The position numbers were made by a program, and so were the translations under genes. Of a DNA stretch of 64,000 nt, positions 622 to 20,272 are shown one piece after another. Within the stretch, counting starts at the first letter, position 1, and each line of letters begins with the position of its first letter. The stretch is from Candidatus Microgenomates bacterium. GTDB lineage: Bacteria; Patescibacteriota; JACPGU01. The stretch is from positions 123,106 to 187,105 of the forward strand of contig JACPGU010000001.1 of the NCBI GenBank assembly GCA_016188915.1, given 5' to 3'. The notes beneath the pieces are model-generated. The model searched no databases, had not been told where the DNA came from, and saw nothing but the letters and a program-made list of their open reading frames with translations.

Positions 622-993
622 TTACATCTTGATCTCAATATCCACTCCCGCGGGCAAATTGAGATTCATCAGGGAATCAATCGTTTTCTGGCCGGCATCA
701 AATATATCAATCAATCTTTTATGGATTCTCATGGAAAATTGCTCTTGAGAATTTTTATGAACAAAAGTTGAACGCAAAACAGAATAAAGGTTTCTTTCTG
801 TCGGCAGAGGGATAGGCCCCGCCACGTTTGCCCCTGTTCTTTTGACTGTTTCTAAAATCTGCGCCGCCGACTGATCCAAGACTTTGTGGTCGTAAGATTT
901 CAATCGCAAACGCACTCTTTGGCCAAATTGCTTTTCCGCTTTTTTAGGAGCAGAAGCAGATTTTGCTTTTGTTTTGGTAGCAGTTTCCGCCAT
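622..993 (-). CDS. rpsJ: 30S ribosomal protein S10 with Lys/Ala-rich N-terminal extension
   Basis: [17 protein letters not shown]...[25 protein letters not shown] matches the S10 core. It sits between tuf and rplC. Confidence 0.9.
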
Positions 994-1039: not shown

Positions 1040-2242
1040 TTACTTGCTAATCTTGGTTACGATACCGGCTCCTACGGTGCGACCGCCTTCGCGAATAGCA
1101 AAGCGCATGCCGTCTTCCATAGCTACCGGTACAATCAATTTGATTTTCAAAGTAACGGTGTCGCCCGGCATTACCATTTCAGCGCCTTCCGGCAATTCTA
1201 CTTCGCCCGTTACATCGGTTGTTCTGATGTAAAATTGTGGCTTGTAGCCTTTGAAAAATGGTGTGTGACGACCGCCTTCCTCTTTAGTCAGAATATACAC
1301 TTCACCTTCAAATTCTGTATGAGGAGTGATGGAACCTGGCTTTGCCAAAACTTGACCTCTCTCAATGTCTTCTTTTTCAATACCGCGGAGCAACACGCCG
1401 ACATTGTCACCAGCTTGGCCTTGGTCGAGCAATTTTCTAAACATCTCCACCCCTGTGACAACTGTTTTTTTAGTATCACGGATACCCACTATTTCAATTT
1501 CTTCATTGACTTTGACAATGCCTCTTTCAATACGACCGGTGGCAACAGTGCCACGTCCTTTGATAGAGAAAACATCTTCTACCGCCATCAAAAATGGCTT
1601 ATCTACTGCTCTTTCTGGCTGCGGGATATAGGTATCCAAAGCAGTGGCCAATTCTATAACAGGACCACAATTTTGGCAATCAGCCTTGCCGCAACCGCAC
1701 TCCAAAGCTTTCAGCGCGGAGCCTTTGACGATAGGCGTGTCTTTACCTGGAAATTCATATTTAGTCAACAGATCCCTGACCTCTTCTTCCACCAAAGAAA
1801 CCAACTCCGGATCGGAAACCATATCAGCTTTGTTTAAGAATACAACGATATATGGAACACCCACTTGACGAGCAAGGAGAATGTGTTCGCGAGTTTGTGG
1901 CATCGGACCATCGGCGGCAGAAACTACCAAAATAGCTCCGTCCATTTGAGCGGCACCAGTAATCATATTCTTGATGTAGTCGGCGTGACCTGGACAGTCT
2001 ACGTGCGCGTAGTGACGATTGGGAGTCTGATATTCTACGTGCGCTGTATTGATAGTAATGCCGCGAGCCTTTTCTTCTGGAGCGGCATCTATTTGGTCAT
2101 AGCCCTTTACTTCAACTTGCTGACCAGAACCAGCCAAAACTTTCGTCAAAGCAGCGGTAAGAGTAGTTTTACCGTGGTCTACGTGTCCAATTGTACCAAC
2201 ATTCAAATGCGGTTTGCTGCGGTCGAATTTTTCTCCTGCCAT
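1040..2242 (-). CDS. tuf: elongation factor Tu
   Basis: [26 protein letters not shown] motifs and full-length EF-Tu similarity. RBS AGGAGGA before ATG. Contains an unusual Cys4 insert (see findings). Confidence 0.97.
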
Positions 2243-2557
2243 TTTATCCTCCTGTAAACAAATTTATTTATTTTTTGTAAAATAATATTTTGCTTTGTGT
2301 AGTAAATTTATGGGCAAAAAAATAATGCCTCACAAAGAAACCTTTGCTATGCCTAAATAGCTACAAGCCATTTTACCTAATATTCAGGAGTAGCGCAAGG
2401 GGGATTTTCGCGCTCACTAATTTTATATGATAGTCTTGCACGACCTGCCAATTTTCGCTTCTCGCGACCCGCCTGCCGGCGAGGCAGGGACAGGAATCGT
2501 AGTTCCGTGAGCGAGAAAGAATATAGGCGGGTAATGTCAAGCTTGTCCTATAATTAT

Positions 2558-2586
2558 TTGACACTAACTAACAATACCCCTATAAT
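2558..2586 (+). promoter_or_regulatory. sigma70-like promoter TTGACA-17bp-TATAAT upstream of the PIN toxin-antitoxin pair
   Basis: TTGACA at 2558-2563, exact 17-nt spacer, TATAAT at 2581-2586, ATG at 2606. Confidence 0.5.
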
Positions 2587-2605
2587 TGCTCTTATAATTT
2601 AATTT

Positions 2606-2827
2606 ATGACAACCAAAAGCATTAATATACAAAAAAACTCTATTTCTCTACCTGATTCTTGGAAAAACACCCGGGCTTTTGTTTCTATTTCCTCCGATTC
2701 TTTAGTACTAAAAAAGATGAAACCTCTAGACCTGACCTCTATCAAAGAAAAAATGAAGGCCGCCGGCAAAAATATTACTCAAAAAGACATCTTTTCTGCC
2801 ACAAAAAAGGCTCGAAAACAAAAATAA
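2606..2827 (+). CDS. putative antitoxin (small protein immediately preceding and abutting PIN toxin gene)
   Basis: 73-aa ORF. Its stop TAA is immediately followed by ATG of the PIN gene at 2828. Gene order antitoxin-toxin is typical of VapBC-like modules. No specific fold recognised. Confidence 0.45.
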   Translation: MTTKSINIQKNSISLPDSWKNTRAFVSISSDSLVLKKMKPLDLTSIKEKMKAAGKNITQKDIFSATKKARKQK

Positions 2828-3244
2828 ATGAATATTGTCTTAGATACCAATATCATCATTTCGGGACTTTTGTGGAAAGGAAACGCAAAAGTTCTTTTTG
2901 ATTTCATTGAAGAAAACGAATTTACTATTTGTTTAACTCCCAAAATACTTGACGAAATAAAACGAGTTTTGGAGTATCCTAGAATAAAAAAACAACTCGA
3001 AAAAGTCTCTCTAGAGATTAATGAAGTACTCTTTTTTCTCTTGCAATATTCTGAAATATATTCTGATATAGAAATTTTTAAAGTAGTAGCCGACGACCCT
3101 TCTGACGATATGTTTGTCAATTGCGCTCTTCTCTGTGGCTCTCAATATATTATCTCTGGCGATCAGCATCTGTTGAAAATAAAAAAGTTTCAAAATGTGG
3201 CTATACTAACGGTAAGAGAATTTTTAGAAAAACAAAACCCATGA
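2828..3244 (+). CDS. PIN-domain protein (VapC-like toxin)
   Basis: N-terminal LDTNIII, central DDPSDD..VNCAL and IISGDQHLL are acidic-residue signatures of PIN nucleases. Confidence 0.75.
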   Translation: MNIVLDTNIIISGLLWKGNAKVLFDFIEENEFTICLTPKILDEIKRVLEYPRIKKQLEKVSLEINEVLFFLLQYSEIYSDIEIFKVVADDPSDDMFVNCALLCGSQYIISGDQHLLKIKKFQNVAILTVREFLEKQNP

Positions 3245-3798
3245 AAACAAAAACCAAATTCTACTTCTACTTATTATTAAATTTTCCAGGTATTGCGACG
3301 CACGAACTGTCGCATGCTATTTTCTGCTGGCTTTCGGGAGTAAAGGTGACGAAAGTCGTCTTCTTTCAATTCAAAAATCCTCCGGGCTTCGTGGAGCACC
3401 ACCAGCCTCGTGGCGTTCTTCAATCATTTTTCATCTCCTTCGGCCCCTTCTTTTTTGGTAGTTTTGTTTCTCTTTCTATGTTCTGGATTGTAAGTTACAT
3501 GTTGAGAAGTTCTTTTTCTTCATACTTAATACCTGATACTCAATACTTAATACTGATGTTTGTCTCTCTCTACCTCGGTCTCTCCGTCTCCCTCAATCTC
3601 TTTCCCAGCGACGAAGATGCGAAGGTCTTGCTCTCCAATGTCAATTATCATGTCTTGCACCGTTTCAATCCCTTCGCCGTTCTGCTCTATCCTTTTGTTT
3701 TACTAATTCGTCTTTTTAATTTTCTCCGTCGCGTCCATTTTGACTGGGCGTATGCGATCTTTCTTTTTTTGCTAACCTGGTATTTCATCAATGAGTAG
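3241..3798 (+). CDS. multi-pass membrane protein with HExxH motif (putative membrane zinc metallopeptidase, DUF3267-like)
   Basis: Starts ATGA overlapping the PIN stop. THELSHAIFCWLSG contains HExxH, followed by several hydrophobic segments. Confidence 0.5.
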   Translation: MKTKTKFYFYLLLNFPGIATHELSHAIFCWLSGVKVTKVVFFQFKNPPGFVEHHQPRGVLQSFFISFGPFFFGSFVSLSMFWIVSYMLRSSFSSYLIPDTQYLILMFVSLYLGLSVSLNLFPSDEDAKVLLSNVNYHVLHRFNPFAVLLYPFVLLIRLFNFLRRVHFDWAYAIFLFLLTWYFINE

Positions 3799-3825
3799 GA
3801 CACGACGTTCGACCTCGTGTCCTAG
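3796..3825. repeat. palindromic repeat family 1, copy 1 (TAGGACACGACGTTCGACCTCGTGTCCTA, one arm mismatch)
   Basis: Near-perfect 29-nt palindrome. Related copies at 10223-10253 and 49105-49151. Confidence 0.7.
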
Positions 3826-3828
3826 TCA

Positions 3829-3857
3829 TTGAGAGATAAGACAGTGTCTGTTATAAT
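3829..3857 (+). promoter_or_regulatory. sigma70-like promoter TTGAGA-17bp-TATAAT for the Cys-rich gene pair
   Basis: TTGAGA 3829-3834, 17-nt spacer, TATAAT 3852-3857. GGAGA RBS at 3885-3889 then GTG 3896. Confidence 0.5.
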
Positions 3858-3895
3858 GGATAACGAATGACAAAAAAACAGAAAGGAGAAGAACG

Positions 3896-4195
3896 GTGGG
3901 CGAACCCAATGAGATCGTTAACAACCTTGTCGATCCTGAATGTAAATCTTGCCAAGGGACTGGCAAATGTCCCGATGATGATTGCGATGGCGGATTTATT
4001 CCCGGTGATATCGATGCGGAATGCGATCTCCCCCTCGAGATGCAACACATGAGCACCCCCGATCCTTGCAGGATATGCTTTGGAACCGGCAAATGTCTTT
4101 GCGTTCTGCTCAAAGAAAGTCCGGAAAGATGGGGGTCCGTGATCTTCGGAGAAGAGCAGTGGGAAAAAATGGAGAAAGAAAAGACTACGCCATGA
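3896..4195 (+). CDS. small cysteine-rich protein with two CxxCxGTGxC motifs (DnaJ zinc-finger-like); GTG start
   Basis: CKSCQGTGKCPDDDC and CRICFGTGKCLC motifs. Good RBS spacing to GTG. Confidence 0.55.
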   Translation: MGEPNEIVNNLVDPECKSCQGTGKCPDDDCDGGFIPGDIDAECDLPLEMQHMSTPDPCRICFGTGKCLCVLLKESPERWGSVIFGEEQWEKMEKEKTTP

Positions 4196-4398
4196 CCGCT
4201 ACAAAACGCTCGAAAGATTCTTATGCCGATCCAACATGCCCAAGATGCCAGGGCGATGGCAAATGCAATAAATGTGGCGGAGCAAAGACTATACGCTACG
4301 GCAGAGATTCATATATCCTCGGCTATGACGATTTTTGCGACAGATGTAATGGTACCGGTTTCTGCTCTTGTCGCCGACCGCCCAATCCCCTTTTCTGA
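4192..4398 (+). CDS. small cysteine-rich protein, paralog of upstream gene (translationally coupled, ATGA overlap)
   Basis: MTATKRSKDSYADPTCPRCQGDGKCNKCGG...FCDRCNGTGFCSC. ATG 4192 overlaps the TGA of the previous gene. Confidence 0.55.
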   Translation: MTATKRSKDSYADPTCPRCQGDGKCNKCGGAKTIRYGRDSYILGYDDFCDRCNGTGFCSCRRPPNPLF

Positions 4399-4446
4399 TT
4401 TTATGACCACGCGAAACATTTTTATCCTCATCGAACACCGCTCAAA

Positions 4447-4476
4447 AAGAGACCCGCAAGGGTCTCTTAATTTTTT
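4447..4476 (+). terminator. rho-independent terminator after Cys-rich gene pair
   Basis: AAGAGACCC-GCAA-GGGTCTCTT hairpin followed by AATTTTTT. Confidence 0.6.
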
Positions 4477-4518
4477 AGCGCGATTGGCAATTTGACCTAG
4501 CGCCCTATTGTCACTTTT

Positions 4519-4629
4519 CTCCTCATCAATCTCCCCCTCACTTTTTTTTAAAAAATTTCAAACACGACCTATAACTCACGGCTTGCCCCGCATCCTTCAT
4601 GGTGCGTGGGTCGTGAGTTATAGGTCATA
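4519..4629. repeat. repeat family 2, copy A
   Basis: Shares the core ctcatcaatctcc ... ttcaaacacgacctataactcacggc plus the spacer with the copy at 6044-6147, and contains a divergent inverted partner arm (tcgtgagttataggtc). Confidence 0.6.
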
Positions 4630-4650
4630 AGCCTAGCTATCAACGAGCCA

Positions 4651-4680
4651 CAACAAAAAGAGGGAGACGAGTCTCCCTCT
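4651..4680 (-). terminator. rho-independent terminator downstream of 412-aa hypothetical gene
   Basis: AGAGGGAGAC-GA-GTCTCCCTCT hairpin. On the minus strand it is followed by TTTTTG. Confidence 0.5.
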
Positions 4681-4701
4681 AGGATCTTTACGGAAAAGAA
4701 A

Positions 4702-5940
4702 TTATTTCTTGATGGCCTTTTTTATGGCCAGAGCCAAAGCGGCATACAGCTCCGCGGGGGTATAGTCACTCGGTGGCTTCAGACCCTGGATAGCCAAATG
4801 TGCTCGCGCAAAATCTTTCAGTTTCCGCGTGTGCTCAGCGATTGCTATCAGAGCCAAGACCTTGTCGTGATTAAACACTATCCTCGCCATTTCCTTGCGC
4901 GCGGCAGAGAGACACCTCTGACTCAGCCGTATCTTTACGATGGACAGCCGGGCGCGATCCACATCGGCAGAGCTTCGATAATCATTGCATTCAAGACAAG
5001 AATGTACGCTCTTTACAAGAGCATCAACCTCTTCTCGAGTGACGCCAGGAACTGTGGCTTCTGCGCAAAGAAGCTCAATGTAGTCAGAACCATACATCCA
5101 GTTGCTTCTAAGCGACTTTTTTAGGTCATCCGCTTTTTTGGTGTAGGAAGCTCCTTTCCCTTCGTCATTCTTCGCCAGATAGGCGGAAGCGATGAATCTG
5201 TAGGCCAAAGTTTTTTGGTAATCATTCGAAATGTTTTCGGCCACTTCTTCCGCCCCCACAAAATCCCCTATTTTGAGCTGCGCTTTCACTAATGAAAATC
5301 GCGCTTTTGCCATAATCCCAGAGTTACGAATGAGGCAAAGGTTCATCAGGGCTTCCTCTATAAACTTCGCATCCCCGCTTTTTTCTGCCATCATTGCTCG
5401 GCATCGCACTCTGCTTGGGGAGGATGCGGAAGTAAGTTTCCCAAGAGCCTTCTCCGCAAGACCGTCATGCCCGTGCTCAAGCAGAGACTCCACAAGAGAG
5501 GCGGCCATCCAACCATCCTGACGGGCCGACTGAACTTCTTCTAGCGCCCGGTCAAAATCCGCCTTCTCGCCTGTGATGGCCGCGATATAGCAAAGCGTCT
5601 CTTCTTGTCGAGACCATTGCATATCTTTCCTTTTCTCGAGCAACAATCGCACTTCAACGATCAATTCTTCCAATCTTGTCTGAAGTGCAATTTGATTATA
5701 GATGTCAAGCAAAATTTGCAGATCCCGATCGAGACCTGAGCCCCCACCACCTTCCTCGAGTAATCGGTTGTAGTCGCGAAGCAAAACCTGCAATGTCTGA
5801 CTGGAATCTGGGTCGGCGACGATTCTTTCGAGTAATTGTCTTAATTGTCCTACCGTTGGCCTTCTTCCCATCACGCACCTCTTGTTAAAGAATTTCCGCC
5901 AGTAGTTTATTGTGGCGAAATAGCACGCCAAGCGCGCCAT
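4702..5940 (-). CDS. hypothetical alpha-helical protein, higher GC than flanks (likely start at 5871)
   Basis: Long ORF rich in Ala/Leu/Arg/Glu. No recognised domain. Flanked on both sides by repeat family 2. Possible paralog at 58809-60134. Confidence 0.45.
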   Translation of the reverse strand: MARLACYFATINYWRKFFNKRCVMGRRPTVGQLRQLLERIVADPDSSQTLQVLLRDYNRLLEEGGGGSGLDRDLQILLDIYNQIALQTRLEELIVEVRLLLEKRKDMQWSRQEETLCYIAAITGEKADFDRALEEVQSARQDGWMAASLVESLLEHGHDGLAEKALGKLTSASSPSRVRCRAMMAEKSGDAKFIEEALMNLCLIRNSGIMAKARFSLVKAQLKIGDFVGAEEVAENISNDYQKTLAYRFIASAYLAKNDEGKGASYTKKADDLKKSLRSNWMYGSDYIELLCAEATVPGVTREEVDALVKSVHSCLECNDYRSSADVDRARLSIVKIRLSQRCLSAARKEMARIVFNHDKVLALIAIAEHTRKLKDFARAHLAIQGLKPPSDYTPAELYAALALAIKKAIKK

Positions 5941-6043
5941 TTCGCCTACGAACCCCAGCAGATACTGTTATTATAGCGCAAATATTTATAAATACCAAAT
6001 TATATTCGTCCATTTCTTCGTCTCCTCCAGTATCGTCACACCC

Positions 6044-6147
6044 TTTCTCATCAATCTCCACCTAATTTCAAATCAAATTCAAACACGACCTATAACTCAC
6101 GGCCCACGCACCATGAAGGATGCAGGGCAAGCCGTGAGTTAGCGTAG
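6044..6147. repeat. repeat family 2, copy B (internal spacer inverted relative to copy A)
   Basis: Same left arm acacgacctataactcacggc. The spacer ccacgcaccatgaaggatgcagggcaa is the reverse complement of the copy A spacer. Confidence 0.6.
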
Positions 6148-6322
6148 TAGCATAACTGATGGTACTAATGATTCTGTTTATGGCGAATGACTGAAGGCAA
6201 TTCAAGAGTAGTTAAAAATAGTTGCCGGAAGACAAATGCTGTTTATGCAAAAAAACAACCCCGAGGCAAAAGCCCCGGGGCGCGAGAAATAGACGAACGA
6301 ATGACGAGGACGGAGGCGAGGA

Positions 6323-7318
6323 CTACACCCCCAGCGGGGTTCTGCTCTTGGCGCTTTCCGCGCTCTTAGTGCTTTTCTTTTTCCCCTCTTCCTTTTTCCT
6401 CCACTCCCTGTAATCCACGACGAAATCCCAATCGGGGTCTTTAAGGAATCTCAACCATCGCTCGGGGGAAATCTCGTTGAGCCACTCTATGGCGGCAAGG
6501 ATGTCGGACTTCGTCGGCCTGTCATCACCCGTACCCGATATCGCGTCTCTCAATTTCTCTAATGCCTTCGCCACAGCCAGCCGGTACCTTTCAAAAAGAA
6601 TCTCCGCCACGCTCTGGCCTGCGTGTCTTTCCGCGAGAAGCAACAGATCCTTGATCCGCTCCGAAAATATGTTACCTAGTGGTCGCAGGGGTTCTCTTAG
6701 GGAACCGTCTTTAACATAAAAGAAGTCGCCTAAAAAAGAGATCCCCTTCTTCCAATTTGCCGCCCTGAAGTGACAAGAGAGCCATTCGGTGGAAGGGTCA
6801 GGGTAATCCGAATACAGCTTCAGAAGGAATTTTTGACTCCTCATCCAGTAAAATTCTGTCATACCTACGATGCCCAGAAAATTACCGAGGGAGTACTCCT
6901 TTACTTCTTTGTTGCCCTCGTCCAAGATGAAAACCTTGCAATTATTCATGGAGGACCCTTGCCTGATATGTCCGAGAATGATTTCTCGCATTCTTTTTTC
7001 AACTACGCCGGATCCTTCATTCCTGCTCCAGTAAGCAATCTTTTTGACGATCAGAATCGCCTTGTGGTGGTAATAGGCAGCATTAAACGCCGCCATCAAA
7101 GAAGCAAGGGATAGGGGGATAGAGGAAGAACTGATTATTGGATGCATATGCTTCCAATAAATCAAATCGCCGAGAAAGAATAATCCGCCAAGCAAACTGA
7201 GAACGGCCCAACAAAGATACCAGAACATCACAACCTCCTTTTGCCTTGCTGTCTTGTCCTTTTTGCCTTTTTTTTCGAGTTGCCTCGAGATCATGCAAAC
7301 CGAACTACAGCCCGACAA
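6323..7318 (-). CDS. hypothetical membrane-anchored protein, higher GC
   Basis: Long ORF with an N-terminal hydrophobic segment. No recognisable motif. Confidence 0.4.
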   Translation of the reverse strand: MSGCSSVCMISRQLEKKGKKDKTARQKEVVMFWYLCWAVLSLLGGLFFLGDLIYWKHMHPIISSSSIPLSLASLMAAFNAAYYHHKAILIVKKIAYWSRNEGSGVVEKRMREIILGHIRQGSSMNNCKVFILDEGNKEVKEYSLGNFLGIVGMTEFYWMRSQKFLLKLYSDYPDPSTEWLSCHFRAANWKKGISFLGDFFYVKDGSLREPLRPLGNIFSERIKDLLLLAERHAGQSVAEILFERYRLAVAKALEKLRDAISGTGDDRPTKSDILAAIEWLNEISPERWLRFLKDPDWDFVVDYREWRKKEEGKKKSTKSAESAKSRTPLGV

Positions 7319-7391
7319 AACACGGTTTTTCTTGAGCAGGGCAACCGCGAAACCATCGTCCTTATTTTAAGGATCGATACCAACTGTTCTA

Positions 7392-7420
7392 ATTATACGC
7401 TCAACAAAGCTAAATGTCAA
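7392..7420 (-). promoter_or_regulatory. sigma70-like promoter (minus strand) TTGACA-17-TATAAT
   Basis: Plus strand tgtcaa at 7415-7420 and attata at 7392-7397 with a 17-nt spacer. Drives the gene starting at 7318. Confidence 0.5.
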
Positions 7421-7424
7421 GAAA

Positions 7425-7455
7425 GTCAAAAAGGGGTGGGTTAGAAACCCGCCCC
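7425..7455 (-). terminator. rho-independent terminator downstream of fusA
   Basis: GGGGTGGGTT-AGAA-ACCCGCCCC hairpin (G-U pairs in RNA) followed on the minus strand by TTTTTG. Confidence 0.6.
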
Positions 7456-7504
7456 TACAATTTCTTAATTTTTTATTTTTTTATTTTTTTATTTTCTCCC
7501 CCCC

Positions 7505-9601
7505 CTACCGTCCCTCCGCCTTCTCTTTTGCCTTAATCCCGATGATAGTTTCCGCCACATTGCGAGGCACTTCGGCATAATGGTCGAATTCCATCGTGGA
7601 AGAACCGCGGCCTTGCGTCATCGAACGCAGATTGGTCGTGTAGCCAAACATTTCACCGAGTGGCACATAAGCATCGATAAATTTAATCGTGCCTCGGTCG
7701 CCGGACTCCAAAATCTGGCCGCGTTTGGCGTTCAAATCGCCCATAATATCGCCCAAGAATTCTTCTGGCGCCAGCACTTCCACTTTCATTACCGGTTCCA
7801 AAATTACCGGATCGGCCTTTTTCACGCCGTCTTGAAAGGCCATACTGGCTGCGATTTTGAAGGCCATTTCAGATGAGTCCACTTCGTGGAAAGAACCGTC
7901 AAAAACCGCCGCTTTCAGATCTATCACTGGATAGCCAGCGATTACTCCCCTGTCCATAGCTTCTTTGATACCTTTTTCAATCGCCGGAACATATTCGCGC
8001 GGAATAGCGCCACCGACGATTTTGTTCTCAAATTCAAAACCTTTGCCTGCTTCCAGAGGCGATAATTCCAACCAACAATGGCCGTATTGGCCACGACCGC
8101 CGGATTGACGGATGAATTTACCCTCGCACTGAACCAATTTGCGAATAGCCTCTTTGTAGGCCACTTGTGGTTTGCCCACATTAGCCTCCACTTTGAATTC
8201 TCTTTTCATACGATCTACAATAATTTCCAAGTGCAATTCGCCCATGCCGGAAATAATCGTTTCTCCAGTCTCTTGATCACCTTTGATGCGAAAGGTTGGA
8301 TCTTCTTCGGCTAGCTTGGAGAGCGCCACGCCCATTTTTTCCTGATCGGCTTTAGTCTTTGGTTCAATCGCTACCGAAATCACTGGCTCGGGAAAAGTGA
8401 TATTTTCCAAAATAACAGGGTTGGTTTCATCGCACAAAGTATCGCCGGTAAAGGTAGATTTTAATCCTACCGCTGCCGCAATCTCACCAGCTGAAACTTC
8501 CGAGACATCTTCCCTCTGCGCGGCGTGGAGTCTGACGATACGGCCTATTCTTTCTCTTTCGCCCTTCGTTGAATTATAAACATAGGAGCCGGCTGTCAAT
8601 TTCCCTGAATAAACGCGGAAAAAGCAAAGCTTACCAACAAAAGGGTCAGAGGCTATCTTGAAAGCTAATGCTGCAAAAGGTTCTTTCTCGGAGGCTAAGC
8701 GTGTCACTTCTTCACCGGTTTTGGGATGGGTGCCTTTCACCGGCGGTTTGTCTAGTGGCGAGGGTAAATAATACATGATGGCGTCTAGCAAAGTTTCTAC
8801 AATGACGCCTCGACCATCGCCACCCATAACGGGGAAAAAATTGCCGGTCAGAGTCGCCTTGCGGATAGCTGAACGCAATTCTTCGGTCGTTAGTTCTTCG
8901 CCGCCCAGATATTTTTCCATCAATTTCTCGTCAAATTCCACCGCTTTCTCAATCAGTTCTGAACGATATTTGGCTACTTGTTCAGCCATTTCCGCCGGTA
9001 CTTCGCTTTCGATTAATTGATGGTCGGTGAATTCTTTGTAGGTATAGGATTTCAGCGCCACCAGATCCACCACACCATTGATGTCTTTTTCGAAACCAAT
9101 CGGCAGTTGAATCGGGTAGGCTTCTTTGCGAAGTCTTTTGCGAATAGAATCCAAAGATTTATAAAAATCGCCACCGGTTTGATTGATTTTGTTGATAAAG
9201 CAAATGCGTGGTACACCATATTTGTCGCCTTGACGCCAGACGGTCTCCGACTGCGGTTCCACGCCCATTTTGCCGTCAAAGATAACGGCCGCGCCATCCA
9301 AAACACGCAAAGATCGCTCTACCTCAACGGTAAAGTCAACGTGCCCCGGCGTGTCAATAATATTGAAACGATGGTCTTTCCAAAAACAAGTGGTCGCCGC
9401 CGAAGTAATCGTGATACCTCGCTCGCGCTCTTGCTCCATCCAGTCCATAGTCGCCTCGCCTTCGTGTACCGCGCCGATTTTGTGCTTTTTCCCGGTACGG
9501 TAAAGAATGCCTTCGGTCACCGTCGTCTTACCAGCGTCGATATGGGCAATGGTGCCGAAATTGCGAACATGGTCGAGGGGATATTTTGTCTCTTCTGTCA
9601 T
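7505..9601 (-). CDS. fusA: elongation factor G
   Basis: [22 protein letters not shown]-like motifs. Full-length EF-G similarity. Ends with TAG. Confidence 0.97.
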
Positions 9602-9794
9602 TGTGCGTTTTTCTAATAATCTAGTGCTATTTAAAAGTTATAATTTTTGAATTTTGTAATTTTTGAATTTTTAAACAATTTCTAATGTTCTAATTTTTAA
9701 AAAATTAAAAATTGTAAAAATTAAAAATTGGCGTTCAGGACGAAGCCTTGCCTATTATACGCAGAATAGATACTGGAAGCAAGAAAATTTTTTA

Positions 9795-9823
9795 TTGCTA
9801 TTGTTTTGCCAAAGATTTATAAT
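9795..9823 (+). promoter_or_regulatory. sigma70-like promoter TTGCTA-17-TATAAT for third Cys-rich gene
   Basis: TTGCTA 9795-9800, 17-nt spacer, TATAAT 9818-9823. RBS AGAGAGG at about 9872. Confidence 0.5.
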
Positions 9824-9890
9824 AATGGCAACTTCAAGAACCTGAAGGCTGGGTTTTTGGAGAAATTTAAAAAGAGAGGCGGTGGAAAAG

Positions 9891-10148
9891 ATGTGCAAGT
9901 CGGCTGAAGAAATGCAGGGAGCACAGAGAGCCATGGATATTCCGAGGAAAAGGCCTCCCGAAGGGGAAGCTCATATAACGTTCACTCCCTATGTGAAGGG
10001 TTCTGGTTGCGACATCTGTTATGGCACCGGCGCCTGCATGGCCTGTCATGATAATGGCGGAGAATGTTCTTCCTGTCATGGGACTAGGCTCTGTATCGCC
10101 TGCGAAGGAAAGAAAGGAGAGGAGAAAGAATCCAAAGGAGTGTCATGA
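9891..10148 (+). CDS. small cysteine-rich protein, third member of CxxCxGTGxC family
   Basis: GCDICYGTGACMACHDNGGEC and CSSCHGTRLCIAC. An alternative GTG start at 9882 is possible. Confidence 0.55.
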   Translation: MCKSAEEMQGAQRAMDIPRKRPPEGEAHITFTPYVKGSGCDICYGTGACMACHDNGGECSSCHGTRLCIACEGKKGEEKESKGVS

Positions 10149-10176
10149 CCGCCATTCCCACACACTACCAAAAGTA

Positions 10177-10220
10177 AAAAGACCCGTTCGCCGGTTTCGC
10201 CGACAACGGGTCTTTTCTGT
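10177..10220 (+). terminator. rho-independent terminator after third Cys-rich gene
   Basis: AGACCCGTT...AACGGGTCT stem followed by TTTTCTGTT. Confidence 0.55.
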
Positions 10221-10222
10221 TA

Positions 10223-10253
10223 CTAGGACACGACGTTCGACGTCGTGTCCTAG
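10223..10253. repeat. palindromic repeat family 1, copy 2 (perfect 31-nt palindrome CTAGGACACGACGTTCGACGTCGTGTCCTAG)
   Basis: Perfect palindrome seen directly. Confidence 0.7.
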
Positions 10254-10256
10254 TAG

Positions 10257-10300
10257 TACAAAAAAAATACCGCGCGGTTGCTCGCGCGGTGAATATTTTT
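10257..10300. terminator. bidirectional hairpin terminator (ACCGCGCG-GTTGCT-CGCGCGGT flanked by A-run and T-run)
   Basis: 8-bp GC stem with an A8 run upstream and a T9 run downstream. Lies downstream of the lipoprotein gene on the minus strand. Confidence 0.55.
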
Positions 10301-10313
10301 TTTGCTTGATGCC

Positions 10314-11432
10314 TTACTCGGAGGAGAGCTTCCTCTCCCAGTAAAGCCTTCCCGGGAATTCCTCGGTGGTTGGCTCCTGGTAGTCGGTCGCCTCCCACTC
10401 CAAGGACTCGGGGAGAATATTGATATTTATGCAAAATTCTCCCCCTTCCACATCGATTGGGTTCACGAGCCGGAAGTAGTCCCAGCTCGAATCGATGGCC
10501 TCCGGCTTCGTTTGAAGCTTGAAGCATTCCCGATACTGGCCGGCAGGAATCCCCTCCGCCGAGAGGGAAAAGCTAACGCTTCCTGTGTCGCCCGGCAAAA
10601 TCCTATAGCCGGTAGCATCAGAAACCACCGTCCTGTCGTACCAGGACGAAGAGTCAAAAAACTGACTCCCGGTAGCGTTAACCGTCACCATATACACGCG
10701 GTTCTTCCTGTTGGACAGGTTGTACCACGGCATATTCCCCGTATTCTTCACCCGAACTTCGGGGAAAAAATACGGCCAACTCCCGCCACGCTGCCCGGAC
10801 ACCAAGGTCACCGAGATTTCCTGATCGGTCACAGCGGCGTACTTCGGCTCGGTGCCTTCCGGCAGGACACCGATTTCTAATTCGGCCGTGGGAATCCAGA
10901 AGCTGTCCTTGCTCAAAACGGACAGGTCTTCGACAGTGGCGCGAACAGTGATGGTTTTGGTGCTTCCCTGCGCCACAGCCGGAAGAATAACCGCCATCGT
11001 CGCCACACCCCAATCGTTGGTCGTGACGATTTCGGTCGCGCCCAATTGAATTGAGCCGTCGTAAACTCGAAACGTCACCGGAGCCTTGAGCCGCGAGTAA
11101 TCGCAACCCTCTCTGCAGCTCCCGTGGATTTTTGCTCCAGTCGTCATTTCTTCTCCAGCCATGCCCACCTGATAGCTGTAATCCAGATAGGTGTCATCGG
11201 AAACCGCCCCCGAGCTTGCCGCCGAAATCCAGGAAACCACATCGCCTTCAGCGATGATGATGTTGCCCGGATTCTCCGGAATGGGTGGCTCCATGCCTTC
11301 GTCCAGGGTGGGCGGAACGGGCACAACCGGTGTCCCTCCCCCGCCTCCGCAACCGGATAGAAGAAGAATCGCAATCAGGAGCAAGAAAATGCCTCCCACC
11401 ACCGCCAACCCCACCTTTTTCATCTTTTTCAA
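10314..11432 (-). CDS. putative secreted lipoprotein, higher GC
   Basis: N-terminal MKKMKKVGLAVVGGIFLLLIAILLLSGC (signal peptide plus lipobox-like LSGC) then a Gly/Pro-rich linker. No known domain. Confidence 0.55.
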   Translation of the reverse strand: MKKMKKVGLAVVGGIFLLLIAILLLSGCGGGGGTPVVPVPPTLDEGMEPPIPENPGNIIIAEGDVVSWISAASSGAVSDDTYLDYSYQVGMAGEEMTTGAKIHGSCREGCDYSRLKAPVTFRVYDGSIQLGATEIVTTNDWGVATMAVILPAVAQGSTKTITVRATVEDLSVLSKDSFWIPTAELEIGVLPEGTEPKYAAVTDQEISVTLVSGQRGGSWPYFFPEVRVKNTGNMPWYNLSNRKNRVYMVTVNATGSQFFDSSSWYDRTVVSDATGYRILPGDTGSVSFSLSAEGIPAGQYRECFKLQTKPEAIDSSWDYFRLVNPIDVEGGEFCININILPESLEWEATDYQEPTTEEFPGRLYWERKLSSE

Positions 11433-11518
11433 AGCTACTTCCTCCTTTTCTGGCCCCGTAGGGCTGATTTTTTAGCACATTTTTAAGGATCAAACTGCAC
11501 CCTTTATGCTTATCTACC

Positions 11519-11547
11519 ATTATAGCATAGTTTATGAAAAAAGTCAA
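11519..11547 (-). promoter_or_regulatory. sigma70-like promoter (minus) TTGACT-17-TATAAT for lipoprotein gene
   Basis: Plus strand agtcaa at 11542-11547 and attata at 11519-11524, 17-nt spacer. Confidence 0.5.
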
Positions 11548-11571
11548 GGTTTTTACGCGTATATCCACACA

Positions 11572-11610
11572 TATCAATAAAAATCAGCCGTTAAGCTGAT
11601 TTTTATCTTT
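11572..11610 (-). terminator. hairpin terminator downstream of rpsG (also has T-run on plus strand)
   Basis: AAATCAGC-CGTTAA-GCTGATTT with T-rich flanks on both strands. Confidence 0.45.
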
Positions 11611-11647
11611 CGTACAATTTGTCTAAAAATTCGTAAAATTTGTCTTC

Positions 11648-12124
11648 CTAATATCTCCCGAAATGGGCGTAGGCGCGATTGCTTTCGGCCATTTTGTGAG
11701 TATCTTCTTTTTTCTTGATTGCTCCACCCTGATTGTCAGAAGCCAAAATCAATTCTTCGGCCAGCTCTTCTGGTGTAGAACGACCCTTTTTAGCCCGCAC
11801 TACCCCTAATATCCATTTGATAGCAAAGACAACTTTTTGGTCTTTTTTGACTTCCATCGGCACCTGGTAATTGGCCCCTCCGATACGACGACTACGCACT
11901 TTTAGGCTGGGAGAGACATTTTTAATAGCATTGTTAAAAACATCGATACCCTTTTTGTCAGTCTTTTTTTCCACTATTTCCAAAGCATCATAAAAAATAC
12001 GAGTAGCCAAAGATTTTTTGCCACCCCACATCAGATTGTTGATAAATTTGGCAACCACAACTGACCCATAAACAGGGTCTGGCTGGATCTCTCTTTTTGG
12101 CGCTTGTTTTGAACCTCGGCTCAT
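11648..12124 (-). CDS. rpsG: 30S ribosomal protein S7
   Basis: Full-length S7 similarity (KFINNLMWGGKKSLA..., VPMEVKKDQ...). Confidence 0.95.
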   Translation of the reverse strand: MSRGSKQAPKREIQPDPVYGSVVVAKFINNLMWGGKKSLATRIFYDALEIVEKKTDKKGIDVFNNAIKNVSPSLKVRSRRIGGANYQVPMEVKKDQKVVFAIKWILGVVRAKKGRSTPEELAEELILASDNQGGAIKKKEDTHKMAESNRAYAHFGRY

Positions 12125-12216
12125 GGCTAAAAAATTAATAAAATAAAAAAGTAAAAAATTAAGAATTCTGCAATTATTATTTTCTTAATTTCTTATTTTC
12201 TTAATTTCTTAATTCC

Positions 12217-12630
12217 TTATTTCCGCTTTGCTCCATACCTAGAACGACCTTGCTGTCTTTTTTCTACCCCTCCAGCATCCAACATGCCACGCACAATATG
12301 ATATCTAACCCCCGGTAGGTCTTTTACTCTGCCACCACGGATAACCACTACTGAGTGTTCTTGAAGATTGTGCCCGATCCCCGGGATGTAGGCTGTCACT
12401 TCCATACCATTAGTCAATCTGACACGAGCGATTTTACGCAAAGCGGAGTTTGGCTTTTTCGGTGTCATCGTCGTCACCTTGGTGCAAACACCGCGCTTAA
12501 AAGGCGAACCTTTTTTACTCTCCGTAGTGCGACCTTTGATGGAATTAAAACCCAAAAGCAAAGCTGGCGCCTTGCTTTTTTTTGCGGCGCTCTTTCTCCC
12601 CTTGCGAATTAATTGATTAATGGTAGGCAC
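12217..12630 (-). CDS. rpsL: 30S ribosomal protein S12
   Basis: [11 protein letters not shown]...[10 protein letters not shown]...[14 protein letters not shown] typical of S12. Confidence 0.95.
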
Positions 12631-12745
12631 AAAAATAAAATAAAATTTCTAATTAACCTAATTGACCTAATTTCTAATTAATTAAATCAATTAGAAATTT
12701 TGCGAACATTTAACATTATAGCAAAAACAACGCGCTATTTCAACC

Positions 12746-15700
12746 CTATTGTCTTCGGCGAGTGGCAAAACCAGTGCCGGCAGGAATTAATTTACCCAAA
12801 ATCGTATTCTCTTTCAAGCCTCGCAGACGGTCTACTTTGCCTACCGTTGCCGCGTCAATCAAAACCGAAGTCGTCTCTTGGAAGGAAGCGGCCGACAAGA
12901 AAGAATCTGTGTTCAATGAAGATTTAGTGACACCCAAAAGCAATTCTTCCCAGGCTATTAATTTCTTACGAGATTTTTCTAATTTTTTGTTCATGGCTCG
13001 AACCGACGAAAGCGTAACAATATCGCCTTCCAAAAATTCGCTCGCACCCGGATCGGTGATACGAACCTTGGAGAACATTTGGCGAATAATAATTTCAATA
13101 TGCTTGTCGTTGATGGACTGGCCCTGCGATTCGTATATTTCCTGAATTTCTTTGACAATATATCTTTTGACCGCGCCAGAGTCTCTGATATCCATTAGCT
13201 GATGCAAGTCAATATGGCCCTCCGTGATTTGCGCGCCTTTTTCTATTTTTTCACCCTCCCCTACCAAAACCTCTATCCCGCGGTCAATATTGTAGATTCT
13301 TTCTTCTTTTGTAGCGTAGGTCAGAATAATTTTTTGCGCGTTTTTATCTATTTTGACCACACCCTTACCATGCGCCTTCAAGTGTTTTGTTTTGCTCAAA
13401 TCCAAAACAGTTTGACCGTCGGCTACTTTGTCTCCATCTTTGACCAAAATTTTAGCGTTTTTAGGAATTTCTATAATATCTTTTTTGAAATCATCGGAAG
13501 AAATTGTCACCGTGATTTTTCCATCTTTATCTTCGGTTAAAGAAACTGCTCCAGAGATCTCGGAAATAATCGCCAGACCCTTGGGGGCGCGCGCCTCAAA
13601 AAGCTCTTCTACGCGAGGCAAACCTTGGGTAATATCACGTTTGGCAATACCACCAGAGTGAAAAGTTCTCATTGTCAACTGCGTGCCAGGCTCACCGATA
13701 GATTGAGCTGCCATAATACCCACCGCTTCTCCCATCATTACGATTTGTCCGCGCGCCAAATCACGACCATAGCAAGTCTGGCAAATCCCCCATTCCGCTT
13801 CACATTCCAAAGCCGTCTTTACGGCCACCGTATCAATGAATCCATCATCAATAATTTTTTTGATTTTTTCCAAAGTCAACTCTTCGCCTTTGGCAAAAAG
13901 AATTTTCTTATTTTTGCCAACTATGTCACGCGCGATAATACGTCCGTCCAGTCTTTTGATAAAATCTCGATCTATGTCTTCAGCATTACTTTTGGCAAAT
14001 TCCATTGCCGCGCTAGTGCCACAATCTTCTAGGCTGATAATCATATCTTGCGCCACATCAACCAAGCGGCGGGTCAAATAACCGGCATCTGAAGTTCGAA
14101 GCGCTGTATCAGCCAAGCCTTTTCTCGCGCCGTGAGAAGAAATAAAATATTCCAGAACAGTCAGTCCTTCTTTAAAGTTGGATTTGACCGGCAGGTCAAT
14201 AATATCTCCGGTCGGACTCTGCAAGAGTCCTCTCATCGCCACTACTTGAGAAAGGTGGTCTTTGTTGCCGCGCGCCTTGGAAGTAATCATGATGGTAACA
14301 GGATTTTCTCGGTCAAAACGAGCGAAAAGATCTTTTTCAATTTTTTCTTTGGTAGCCGTCCAAATCTCAATATTTTTCAAATATTTTTCAGTCGGAGTGA
14401 TTAGGCCTTTTTTATATTGATTATCCACTTCGTCTATTTTGCGCTCGGCTTCTGTTATTTCCTTGGTTTTGTTTTCGGGGATATGTAAATCGTCAACCGA
14501 AAGGCTAATGCCTGACAAAGTGGCTGCCAACATTCCGATACTTTTGATATCGTCAACCAGAATAGCTGTTTTCTCAATGCCTAATTCTTTAAAAGATTTG
14601 GCGATTATTTTTTCCAAATCACCTTTGGCCACGGTAGCATTTACGAAATCTATTTCATCTGGGATGTATTGATTGAACCAAATACGACCCAATGTTGTTT
14701 CTATTATCTTATCGTCCATACGCACTTTTATTTTAGCCTGCATATGGATTTGCCCAAGCTGATAGGCCATATTGGCTTCTTCCGCGCTGTGGAAAGCGCG
14801 ACCTTCACCTAAAACACCAGACGCTTCCATTGTCAGATAATAGCAACCCAAGGCGATATCCTGAGAAGGAGCAACAGAAGGAGAACCGTCGGACGGTTTC
14901 AGTAGATTTTTGGAAGAGAGCATAATATTGGCAGCTTCTTCTTGGGCCGGTCGCGACAGTGGTACATGAATGGCCATCTGGTCGCCATCAAAGTCGGCGT
15001 TGAAAGGAGAACAAACTAAAGGGTGAATACGAATAGCCTTGCCTTCAATTAATTTTACCTTAAAAGCCTGGATGCCCAAGCGATGCAAAGTCGGCGCGCG
15101 ATTAAGTAAAACATAATATTTTTTAGTGATTTCTTCCAAAATATCCCAAACTTCAGAGATGCCAGAGTCTATCAATTTGGAGGCGCTTTTGGCGCTGTGG
15201 GTAAAGCCTCGACCGATTAATTCCGCGATAATGAAGGGTTTGAACAATTCCAAAGCCATAGTCTTTGGTATGCCACACTCATCCAAGCGCATATCGGGTC
15301 CGCCAACGATTACCGAACGACCGGAATAATCTACGCGCTTGCCCAAAAGATTTTGACGGAAACGCCCCTGTTTGCCCTTCAGCCCTTCGGACAAAGATTT
15401 TAATTTTTTCTTGCCGACAACAGCAGTTTTGCCACGCGCCGAATCAGTACCTATCAAGGCATCTACCGCTTCTTGCAACATTCTTTTTTCATTTCTTTGG
15501 ATAACTTCTGGCGCGCGTAATTCCTGCAAACGCTTCAAGCGATTGTTGCGATTGATAACCCTGCGATACAAATCATTAATATCAGAAGTCGCGAAACGAC
15601 CGCCATCCAATGGCACCATCGGTCGCAAATCTGGCGGGATCACCGCTACGTGAGTCAAAATCATCCAAGCCGGGTCAATACTGGCGCGATCCAAACCTTT

Positions 15701-19600: not shown

Positions 19601-20272
19601 GATAAATGGTCTATCAGGGTCAGTATCAACATCGGCAAAAAGCTTGATTAATTGGTCGTTATCCCCCAACCCAAAAGCTTTCAGCAAAGTAGTGATTGGG
19701 ATTTTTCTTTTGCGATCTATTTTAACTGAAATAATATTTTTACTAGAAGTCTCCAGCTCTAGCCAAGCGCCTCGATCAGGAATAATTTTGGCACCAAAAA
19801 GATCCGTTCCGGAAGAATTGTCAGAAGTGAATAAAACTCCAGGGGAACGGACGATTTGTGATACTACTACTCTTTCAATGCCATTGATAATAAAAGTACC
19901 CTGATCGGTCATGAGTGGAAAATCACCCAGAAAAACGCTTTGTTCTTTAATCTCGCCGGTATTTTTGTTAACCAAACGAATACGGCAACGTACCGCGGCC
20001 TTGTAGGTAAGATTTCTGGTTCGGACATCATCTTCAGAATATTTCGGCTCTTCTACTTTGTAGTCCAGAAAATAGAGTTCTAGATTTTTCCCGATAAAGT
20101 CCTCTACGGGGTTTAATTCTTCAAAAATTTCCTTCAGCCCTTCCTCTAAAAACCAACGGTATGAGTCCAGTTGCACCTCAATAAGATTGGGAGGGGCAAT
20201 AACTTCGTCATTAGGACGAAAATATTTTCTTTCAGAGACAGAGTTTTTTGAGACCATAAAAAACCTCCCCAA
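16652..20272 (-). CDS. rpoB: DNA-directed RNA polymerase subunit beta (with acidic C-terminal tail)
   Basis: Full-length beta similarity. The C-terminal ~90 aa are strongly acidic (E/D-rich). Confidence 0.97.
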   Translation of the reverse strand: MGRFFMVSKNSVSERKYFRPNDEVIAPPNLIEVQLDSYRWFLEEGLKEIFEELNPVEDFIGKNLELYFLDYKVEEPKYSEDDVRTRNLTYKAAVRCRIRLVNKNTGEIKEQSVFLGDFPLMTDQGTFIINGIERVVVSQIVRSPGVLFTSDNSSGTDLFGAKIIPDRGAWLELETSSKNIISVKIDRKRKIPITTLLKAFGLGDNDQLIKLFADVDTDPDRPFIRTTLEKDPATTMDAAILDVYRRIRPGDLVTVENAKTLVDNMFFNFRRYDFSKVGRYKINKRLNLDIPNDIAHRVLQKEDIVAVVREIIRLNNDPDAIPDNIDHLKNRRVRAVGELVQRRVRIGFLRVERMIKDRMSVVDIESVTPAQLINVRPITAVLQEHFASSQLSQFMDQTNLLSELEHKRRLSAMGPGGLSRERAGFEVRDVHSSHYGRLCPVETPEGPNIGLIAYFATYVRVNEYGFMETPYIYVQRKAKNDGRDPIGHTLREDVVDGKGKTIAKKDEKITKELAEKFSYLKIEKILVKPRVTGQVMYLDAEEDEKNIIAQANSQIDKEGYFVEKRVAVRNHSEPDVVAPEKIDYMDVSTRQIVGVTASLIPFVEHDEVRRALMGSNMLRQAVPLVKSKAPIVGTGMEEFVARNSGQMLIAKNAGTVKEITDTEIIVSEKGGVASSYKLRRFVRSNDRTCISHKVLVNIDDKVEAGDILADGMATDRGEAALGQNVFVAFMTWSGFGFEDAIIVSERLVHDDIYSSIHIEDYSIEVRDTKLGPEIVTRDIPNVGDEALKNLDEMGIIRIGAEVKAGDILVGKITPKGETELTPEERLLRAIFGEKARDVKDVSLRLPHGEYGKVVDVREFHADRGDELSSGVITKIEVSVAQFRKIVVGDKMAGRHGNKGIVSKVLPAEDMPMLADGTPIDMILNPLGVISRMNLGQLLETHLGYAASKLGYKAASPVFRGISFDEIVGELKKAGLPEDGKVQLYDGRTGEPFGQKTTVGIKYMMKLSHLVDDKIHARSIGPYSLVTQQPLGGRAQFGGQRFGEMEVWALEAYGAAHTLQEMLTIKSDDVWGRSKAYESIIKNEEIKKPSIPESFNVLVKELEGLGLAVELIRESEEGEEIIDAEKVADQGIEDLNQEATLNLGEIIATDADLAGGGFSIEGDEGEPNKEISDAPEEQIEDLELEEESFDDMPEKSEEMEEEIKETE

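Follow-up and report, generated by a model that had tools for sequence, protein, structure and literature searches.

The str operon (rpsL-rpsG-fusA-tuf) was analysed in a 64,000-nt stretch of a metagenome-assembled genome (MAG) of 'Candidatus Microgenomates bacterium' (Patescibacteria); this stretch is called the window, and all coordinates are window positions. Its lipoprotein, EF-G and M50-like proteins match entries of that MAG (locus tags HYV44_) exactly. The four genes of the operon keep their order and orientation here, but spacers of 2,046 nt (rpsG-fusA) and 5,262 nt (fusA-tuf) separate them. We conclude that the split is old, clade-wide and typical of Patescibacteria, with changing cargo, and is not a rare, recent disruption by foreign DNA. 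The str operon probably dissolved long ago into three promoted units, and its two spacers became hotspots of gene flux.

The core genes lie on the minus strand throughout, in the order rpoB, rpoC, rpsL, rpsG, fusA, tuf, rpsJ, with rplC next at the window edge (<500). In Escherichia coli/Salmonella and most bacteria, the canonical str operon, rpsL-rpsG-fusA-tufA, has spacers of tens to ~200 nt. The locus studied here has the same four genes in the same order and orientation between rpoBC and the S10 cluster. It differs in its spacers of 2.0 and 5.3 kb, its nine unrelated genes, its predicted terminators after rpsG and fusA, and its predicted fusA and tuf promoters. The locus thus shows the co-orientation and order of a contiguous str operon, but not the short spacers without intervening genes. 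A preliminary description of this DNA gave the order and co-orientation correctly, as it did the 5.2 kb between fusA and tuf; its figure of 2.2 kb between rpsG and fusA was too large. The core features are as follows.

16652-20272, minus strand: rpoB
12746-16609, minus strand: rpoC
12715-12743, minus strand: predicted promoter of the rpsL-rpsG unit, TTGAAA-17-TGnTATAAT, 11/12 positions
12217-12630, minus strand: rpsL (S12), GTG start codon, no Shine-Dalgarno sequence, AT-rich leader
11648-12124, minus strand: rpsG (S7; PF00177)
7505-9601, minus strand: fusA (EF-G)
1040-2242, minus strand: tuf (EF-Tu), strong Shine-Dalgarno sequence
622-993, minus strand: rpsJ (S10), first gene of the S10 cluster

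Together, the two spacers hold nine plausible open reading frames (ORFs). The rpsG-fusA spacer contains a lipoprotein gene and cys88, while the fusA-tuf spacer contains hyp301, hyp389, cys99, cys68, and a cassette coding for a putative antitoxin, a PIN-domain toxin and an M50-like membrane protein. Three of the six inserted units are on the strand opposite to the core genes.

Relatives and the age of the split

Closer relatives, with EF-G identities of 93%, 85% and 84%, were obtained from a protein search with EF-G; DNA scans of genomes and metagenomes with EF-G reached no more than 72% identity among the matches listed. The str cluster was interrupted in all three sampled relatives at 84-93% identity, in two of them at both junctions and in the closest one, L166, at fusA-tuf, where it was measured. 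Upstream of fusA, L166 (EF-G 93%) carries an unrelated gene and a Cys-rich gene, with no rpsG within the 1,040 nt to the contig end. Its fusA-tuf gap of 2.5 kb contains an RRM gene, a Cys-rich gene, and the M50-like, PIN and antitoxin genes, followed by tuf. In L167/L168 (85%), the rpsG-fusA gap is 6.7 kb long, with three genes including one for a 1,648-aa FG-GAP protein, and the fusA-tuf gap of 5.9 kb holds eleven genes (guanylate kinase, MsrB, a YafQ toxin pair, SpoU, GNAT, HAD, and others). The L169-L172 contigs (84%, 'CPR3') have three genes in a 2.9 kb rpsG-fusA gap, and non-tuf genes for at least 0.95 kb downstream of fusA, to the contig end.

In an all-against-all BLASTP comparison, the cargo of the window, L166, L167/L168 and L169-L172 was unrelated, except for genes shared by the window and L166. 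The shared cargo comprises the antitoxin (73% identity), PIN (77%), M50-like (68%) and cys68 (39-44%) proteins. Both cys68 and cys88 have counterparts in L166, at 34-44% identity where EF-G is at 93%. DNA homology with L166 covers fusA, 2605-3747 and 622-2408, with none over 3748-7504, and cys99, hyp389, hyp301 and the lipoprotein gene are absent from L166. Synonymous divergence (pS) from L166 was 0.68-0.70 for the cassette, 0.59 for fusA and 0.66 for tuf, which are similarly saturated; the ratio of nonsynonymous to synonymous divergence (dN/dS) for the cassette was 0.08-0.14. Since the synonymous divergence of the cassette is as saturated as that of fusA and tuf, the PIN cassette already stood beside tuf in the common ancestor. 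On these sequence comparisons, this low-GC cassette is a functional, vertically inherited resident under purifying selection.

The preliminary description implied recent insertions into this genome. Against this stand the saturated pS and the 93% relative, in which the cassette and two Cys-rich genes are identically placed. In the synteny comparison which it had proposed, the split recurred in all three closer relatives, while the inserted genes mostly did not, the cargo being different apart from the cassette of L166. Its view of the inserted genes as accessory holds, because the cargo differs between relatives and so is no fixed part of the operon.

Surface-type N-termini (signal-peptide/lipobox-like) were seen in the 252-aa, 1,648-aa FG-GAP and 221-aa proteins of the L168 rpsG-fusA slot (L167/L168 3415-9890), and a 113-aa protein with such an N-terminus is encoded just downstream of fusA in L169 (12710-13048). 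Together with the window lipoprotein gene, these sequences hint at a surface-protein theme around fusA.

Interruption in other bacteria

To see how unusual the arrangement is, 160 EF-G loci among the matches listed were surveyed, with gap sizes taken as tblastn spans. Median spacers were 70 nt for rpsG-fusA and 125 nt for fusA-tuf. Among titled genome loci, rpsG-fusA gaps of at least 400 nt were found in 8/14 Patescibacteria-labelled loci vs 1/47 from other phyla; for fusA-tuf, the corresponding counts were 8/10 and 1/44. The interruption is thus rare in bacteria at large and normal in the Patescibacteria radiation, and its rarity, asserted in the preliminary description, applies to the former (1/47, 1/44) and not to the latter (8/14, 8/10). 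The gap cargo of other Patescibacteria included genes for pilin-like, alpha-amylase, dihydroorotate dehydrogenase and DKNYY proteins and for a 1,251-aa protein with a peptidoglycan-binding domain. No homologues of the nine inserted proteins were present in the 160 EF-G loci. No literature linking 'str operon' with Patescibacteria or 'candidate phyla radiation' (CPR) was found in full text.

Thirteen loci (L003, L005, L006, L008, L009, L011, L013, L018, L084, L085, L091, L092 and L101) have a small co-oriented gene (80-160 aa) between fusA and tuf, which is absent from the window. The N-terminal motif of its product is KKTGDRIIVFD...YVVM.L..YE.L. Similarity to Phd/YefM is weak: one member gave E=1.8e-4, below the Pfam cut-off, and a second scanned member gave no match. 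These loci are labelled as, or group with, Patescibacteria, several being untitled metagenome contigs or carrying other phylum labels. This Phd/YefM-like gene may belong to the str cluster as a lineage-specific member.

Loosening is also seen in other classic translation clusters of this genome. In the rpsB-tsf-...-frr cluster (30587-33138), an S-adenosylmethionine decarboxylase-like gene (31334-31762) occupies the usual place of pyrH. The region upstream of rpoB lacks rplJL and has only an unknown gene and a glycosyltransferase gene, on the other strand.

Predicted transcription units and spacer contents

Promoter-like sites matching at least 11/12 positions with a 17-nt spacer occur five times in the first 13 kb, and all five are directly upstream of a gene; 200 dinucleotide-preserving shuffles yielded 0.07 ± 0.26 such sites. 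All predicted terminators fold far better than their own shuffles. An alignment of the regions upstream of tuf in the window, L166 and L168 revealed a conserved TTGCRM-17-TARAAT ~125 nt before the start codon. A TTGYKT-17-TATAAT common to the window and L166 precedes fusA, back to back with the promoter of the Cys-rich gene. Because of these conserved promoter-like sites of fusA and tuf, the rpsL promoter and the terminators, we infer that rpsL-rpsG, fusA and tuf would form three separately promoted units; the sequence predictions argue against a single rpsL-to-tuf co-transcription. The separate predicted terminators after rpsG and after fusA were as described previously (z -5.7 for the rpsG hairpin), and the predicted 17-bp-spaced promoters attributed to the inserted genes exceeded the chance expectation from shuffles. 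The lipoprotein, Cys-rich, PIN-pair, HExxH-protein and hypothetical genes, the palindrome, the terminator and the repeats were likewise found in the spacers as reported.

The rpsG-fusA spacer has the following features.

11576-11607, minus strand: predicted intrinsic terminator after rpsG, 14-bp stem and U-tract; -16.6 kcal/mol, z -5.7
11519-11547, minus strand: predicted promoter of the lipoprotein gene, TTGACT-17-TATAAT
10314-11432, minus strand: lipoprotein gene, 372 aa, lipobox L-S-G-C28, GC 0.56
10268-10291, both strands: predicted bidirectional intrinsic terminator between the lipoprotein gene and cys88
10222-10254: 31-nt palindromic repeat, with family copies also at 3796-3826 and 49108-49132
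9882-10148, plus strand: cys88, small CxxCxGxG protein of 88 aa; positional counterpart in L166 (482-763, minus strand)
9795-9823, plus strand: predicted cys88 promoter, TTGCTA-17-TATAAT, back to back with the fusA promoter
9754-9782, minus strand: inferred fusA promoter, TTGCTT-17-TATAAT, kept in L166
9628-9730: AT-rich 8/16-nt periodic repeats in the fusA leader, where a Logan contig ends

The fusA-tuf spacer and the region up to rpsJ contain the following.

7432-7456, minus strand: predicted intrinsic terminator after fusA
7392-7420, minus strand: predicted hyp301 promoter, TTGACA-17-TATAAT, 12/12 positions
6323-7228, minus strand: hyp301, orphan gene, N-terminal membrane helix, strong Shine-Dalgarno sequence; absent from L166
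6258-6281, minus strand: predicted terminator after hyp301
6031-6141: hairpin repeat copy B (REP-like), loop inverted relative to copy A
5970-5998, minus strand: predicted hyp389 promoter, TTGGTA-17-TATAAT
4702-5871, minus strand: hyp389, orphan gene, TPR-like helical repeats, alternative start at 5940; absent from L166
4659-4680, minus strand: predicted terminator after hyp389
4506-4626: hairpin repeat copy A
4447-4468, plus strand: predicted terminator after the cys99-cys68 pair
4192-4398, plus strand: cys68, small CxxCxGxG protein, ATGA overlap with cys99; L166 homologue at 3891-4118, 39-44% identity
3896-4195, plus strand: cys99, small CxxCxGxG protein
3829-3857, plus strand: predicted promoter of cys99-cys68, TTGAGA-17-TGnTATAAT
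3796-3826: 31-nt palindromic repeat/terminator after the M50-like gene
3241-3798, plus strand: M50B-like HExxH membrane protein, 185 aa, ATGA overlap with the PIN gene; 68% identical in L166
2828-3244, plus strand: PIN-domain toxin (PIN_3/TIGR00305), GC 0.32; 77% identical in L166
2606-2827, plus strand: putative antitoxin, 73 aa, no family match; 73% identical in L166
2558-2586, plus strand: predicted promoter of the antitoxin-PIN-M50 unit, TTGACA-17-TATAAT, 12/12 positions
2370-2398, minus strand: inferred tuf promoter, TTGCGC-17-TAAAAT, kept in L166 and L168
1005-1035, minus strand: 14-bp hairpin plus U-tract between tuf and rpsJ

Among the genes of the locus, rpsL, rpsG and fusA have AT-rich leaders without Shine-Dalgarno sequences, and AGGAG(G)-type sites precede tuf, cys99, hyp301 and the lipoprotein gene. 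The 10-mer AATTTCTAAT occurs in 13 copies vs 0.54 expected, all of them intergenic, at 9677, 12644-12699, 30275-30412, 30578, 39489 and 52570. Most copies of AATTTCTAAT lie in 5' leaders of minus-strand genes (fusA, rpsL, an RseP-like M50 gene, and others), the copy at 30578 being unplaced; one set makes up a tandem array (56 nt x2.9) at 30263-30424. AATTTCTAAT could be a leader/translation-enhancer motif or a regulator binding site.

The lipoprotein conforms to the lipobox pattern [LVI][ASTVI][GAS]C with ...LLLSGC28GGGG, read by eye from the sequence, and G27-C28 is invariant in three homologues. Only two homologues, at 36% identity and both from Patescibacteria, were found among 5.8 billion proteins; both adjoin a gene for a large amidase/SpoIID protein, outside any str cluster. 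A structure model of moderate confidence (pLDDT 61) has tandem beta-sandwich domains, and it matched only generic Ig-like sandwiches (TM-scores of 0.17-0.28), so no function could be assigned. The PDB contained no sequence relatives of hyp301, cys88 or the lipoprotein.

In the PIN cassette, the toxin matched TIGR00305 (1.8e-21, 76.5 bits, cut-off 29.15) and PF13470 (3.4e-18, 67 bits, cut-off 27). The small gene at the antitoxin position is a 73-aa ORF which ends at 2827, the PIN gene starting at 2828, and the pair is kept in L166. Its product belongs to no recognised DNA-binding antitoxin family in Pfam, NCBIfam, PHROGs or PADLOC; NCBIfam, PHROGs and PADLOC scans of the inserted proteins returned PIN only. 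The M50-like protein has H21-E22-x-x-H25 in a membrane helix, invariant in 8 homologues, and an invariant F-P-S-x-x-D-A-K which resembles the second zinc-ligand motif (NxxPxxxxDG-like) without matching it. Its score against PF13398, 25.3 bits, is below the cut-off of 26; the source record labels it as an M50 family metallopeptidase. Homologues at 40-45% identity are found in archaeal-type contexts that lack PIN and translation genes, and a widely conserved PIN+M50 module was rejected on the basis of these farther, PIN-free contexts. The cassette resembles VapBC-type modules in that a small upstream gene abuts a PIN_3/TIGR00305 toxin gene. Unlike VapBC, it has an antitoxin without a known family and a third, ATGA-coupled gene for an M50B-like HExxH membrane protein, a coupling kept in L166.

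Each of the cys99, cys68 and cys88 products has two CxxCxGxG motifs, as DnaJ-type zinc fingers do. Profile and structure matches of the Cys-rich proteins stayed below threshold: PF00684, 14 bits (cut-off 32.7); NF058604 (RtpA), 16.4 (cut-off 65); PDB 3lcz, E=0.67. No more than three small CxxCxGxG ORFs exist in 64 kb, and all three are within the two gaps. A Cys-rich insertion was also observed in EF-Tu (tuf, 1040-2242), in the region following the G domain. Only weak TPR-type repeat matches were obtained for hyp389 among 1.84 billion representatives; the form called in public data is 389 aa long, and a 412-aa form had no exact-protein match, nor had EF-G or EF-Tu. The searches made with hyp301 yielded no relatives. 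Rfam identified no RNA family in or near the inserts. A GC-rich 150-nt stretch at 2408-2557, which L166 lacks, occurs only once in the window and shows no convincing structure.

Composition was compared with that of 43 other window genes (GC 0.451 ± 0.042; GC at third codon positions, GC3, 0.474 ± 0.073). Low outliers were the antitoxin (GC 0.34) and PIN (GC 0.32) genes, with z from -2.6 to -3.2, and the lipoprotein gene was a high outlier (GC 0.56, GC3 0.69; z +2.6 to +2.9). The PIN pair and the lipoprotein gene were the only genes outside the observed range; hyp389, hyp301, the M50-like gene and the three Cys-rich genes were within ~1.5 standard deviations. Insert A had an overall GC of 0.441 vs 0.442 for the window. 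The inserted material had been called compositionally foreign, which is true of the antitoxin/PIN pair and the lipoprotein gene but not of the other six genes or of insert A overall. The two hypothetical genes (hyp389 and hyp301) that had been called higher-GC are within the GC range of window genes.

Members of the palindrome family (3798, 10226, 49108) and of the hairpin family (4566, 6087, 60253) lie within the inserts and also at a great distance from them. Both families are resident elements resembling repetitive extragenic palindromes (REP-like) and are not insert-specific, since copies also lie far from the inserts at 49108 and 60253; the same two copies speak against the earlier counting of these repeats as inserted material. 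The hairpin copies at 4506-4626 and 6031-6141 flank hyp389 and have a common direct left flank and stem arm, with a 27-nt loop inverted between them; the third copy, at 60253-60284, is a perfect palindrome without a loop. These differences suggest flipping of the loop, or an insertion, inside a palindromic element.

No integrase, recombinase or transposase was detected among the nine ORFs with Pfam, NCBIfam, PHROGs and PADLOC, and the inserts had no phage, plasmid or IMG/VR matches. As to tRNA targets or att sites, the only tRNA gene is at 33649, and the only flanking repeats are the REP-like hairpins around hyp389. This tRNA gene (33649-33722, plus strand), the only one in 64 kb, scored 55.8 bits in Rfam and has an 8-nt anticodon loop, CUCCUAGA, in which ARAGORN reads the 4-base anticodon CCUA. 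It resembles a tRNA-Arg(CCU) whose loop carries one additional base, and it is closely followed by a class-I release factor gene (33993-35075).

Competing explanations and significance

According to the explanation that we consider probable, an ancestral str operon would have become P-rpsL-rpsG-terminator, P-fusA-terminator and P-tuf(-rpsJ...). The rpsG-fusA and fusA-tuf spacers would then have served as permissive slots, in which accessory genes (toxin-antitoxin modules, surface proteins, small zinc-finger proteins, and orphan genes) were gained, kept for a while, and replaced. The older layer of cargo, common to L166, would consist of the antitoxin-PIN-M50-like cassette divergent from tuf and of the adjoining and fusA-divergent small Cys-rich genes; cys99, hyp389, hyp301 and the high-GC lipoprotein gene, absent from L166, would form a newer or more variable layer. 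At a guess, DNA may have entered by illegitimate or repeat-mediated recombination at terminator or REP-like hairpins.

Several points weigh against this explanation. Three loci with EF-G at 68-72% identity (L001, L081, L004), the nearest among the listed matches of the DNA scans, have a compact rpoBC-rpsL-rpsG-fusA-tuf-rpsJ arrangement, which bears on the age of the split and on a single origin. Inspection covered just three lineages with EF-G identity of at least 84%, two of which run into a contig edge on one side. The comparison of CPR with non-CPR loci is based on record titles, some of them plainly wrong, and on gaps derived from tblastn spans. The promoters, terminators and unit boundaries are predictions from sequence, and the -35 boxes of the fusA and tuf promoters are weak (3/6). 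Finally, the sequencing runs behind the Logan contigs that support the assembly are possibly the very data that gave the MAG.

That foreign DNA was recently inserted twice, by horizontal transfer, into an otherwise intact str operon of this genome only is unlikely and, for the split itself, largely refuted. The composition of the lipoprotein gene (GC/GC3 extreme of the window) and of the PIN pair (low-GC extreme) would fit such insertions, as would the absence of hyp389, hyp301 and cys99 from the 93% relative, the orphan status of hyp389 and hyp301, and the location of lipoprotein homologues elsewhere in other genomes. However, interruption is seen in each of the three closer relatives, at both junctions in two of them, and the low-GC PIN cassette has orthologues in L166 that have diverged as much as fusA and tuf. 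Most inserted genes are inside the composition range of the window, the inserts contain the genome's own repeat families, and neither an integrase or transposase nor a tRNA target nor any phage, plasmid or viral match was found. A functional partnership between the inserted genes and the translation genes is distinctly improbable; it would make the arrangement a selected regulatory unit, with the small zinc-finger proteins or the PIN/M50 cassette acting on the expression of EF-G or EF-Tu via shared divergent promoter regions. Such a role could account for the confinement of the small CxxCxGxG ORFs to the two gaps, for the back-to-back promoters of cys88 and fusA, and for the divergence of the PIN cassette from the conserved tuf promoter, the last two being found in L166 as well. 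Yet neither the 84-85% relatives nor any of the 160 more distant loci carry these genes, conservation of the Cys-rich proteins is poor (34-44% vs 93% for EF-G), and M50-like homologues elsewhere are unlinked to PIN or translation genes. Quite unlikely, too, is a broader scheme in which the spacers are preferred landing and retention sites throughout Patescibacteria, some cargo is wired to fusA and tuf expression, and the triad is a three-component toxin-antitoxin system with a dedicated membrane metalloprotease. If it were true, translation-gene spacers would be the main variable 'islets' of otherwise streamlined genomes, and the candidates for wired cargo would be the antitoxin-PIN-M50-like triad and the DnaJ-type zinc-finger mini-proteins.

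The chance that the MAG contig is an artefact joined at repeats, with core genes not truly so separated, is minimal. Logan contigs (SRR12113420) that are 100% identical to the window cover 1959-8261 (the 5' part of tuf, the entire insert, and the 3' part of fusA) and, in a second contig, 9674-12210 (cys88, the lipoprotein gene, and rpsG); each was recorded in two samples. What could suggest a false join is that these contigs end exactly at AT-rich periodic repeats (9674, 12210). Repeats with 8-/16-nt periods at 7453-7505, 9628-9730 and 12128-12225 flank fusA on both sides and fill the rpsL-rpsG spacer, and short-read contigs break at the latter two arrays. The cys88/fusA junction (9602-9674, AT-rich repeats) is the only one for which no spanning Logan contig, and no independent contig, was found. 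But L166, a different genome, has the same layout at this junction (a Cys-rich gene, back-to-back promoters, and fusA), and the same arrangement of the PIN cassette beside tuf. The assembly at the junctions, for which the preliminary description had called for read-level validation, is supported by identical contigs everywhere but at cys88/fusA, which is backed by the L166 layout, and a chimera at the locus is very unlikely.

The probable dissolution of the operon into separate units with exchangeable cargo has partial parallels elsewhere. Multigene insertions between operons of the transcription/translation supercluster are known in Proteobacteria (PMC6735719); there, as here, accessory genes interrupt an ancient supercluster in some lineages while the core order is kept. 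Unlike those insertions, the breaks described here are inside the str operon, clade-wide, and common across a phylum-level radiation. In Helicobacter rodentium (L049), fusA is without tuf within 10 kb downstream, another sign that the str cluster is not universally contiguous. In such lineages, tuf has moved away, whereas in the window the genes stay in order and cargo sets them apart. Chromosomal hotspots where genes come and go between conserved core genes, for which the 2017 work of Oliveira, Touchon and Rocha is reportedly an example, likewise have fixed core flanks and lineage-specific cargo in which toxin-antitoxin and surface proteins are over-represented. The spacers studied here differ in being flanked by the most conserved, highly expressed translation genes, in having no integrase or other mobile hallmark, and in belonging to tiny streamlined genomes.

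The finding is a comparative-genomics pattern and does not involve a new molecular mechanism. The str cluster, widely taken as a fixed landmark, is routinely pulled apart in a whole radiation of small genomes, and in CPR annotation and synteny-based binning checks such gaps should not count as misassemblies. Surface proteins specific to a lineage, and toxin-antitoxin or defence genes, are well worth hunting for in the spacers. These organisms appear able to dispense with co-transcription of ribosomal proteins and elongation factors.

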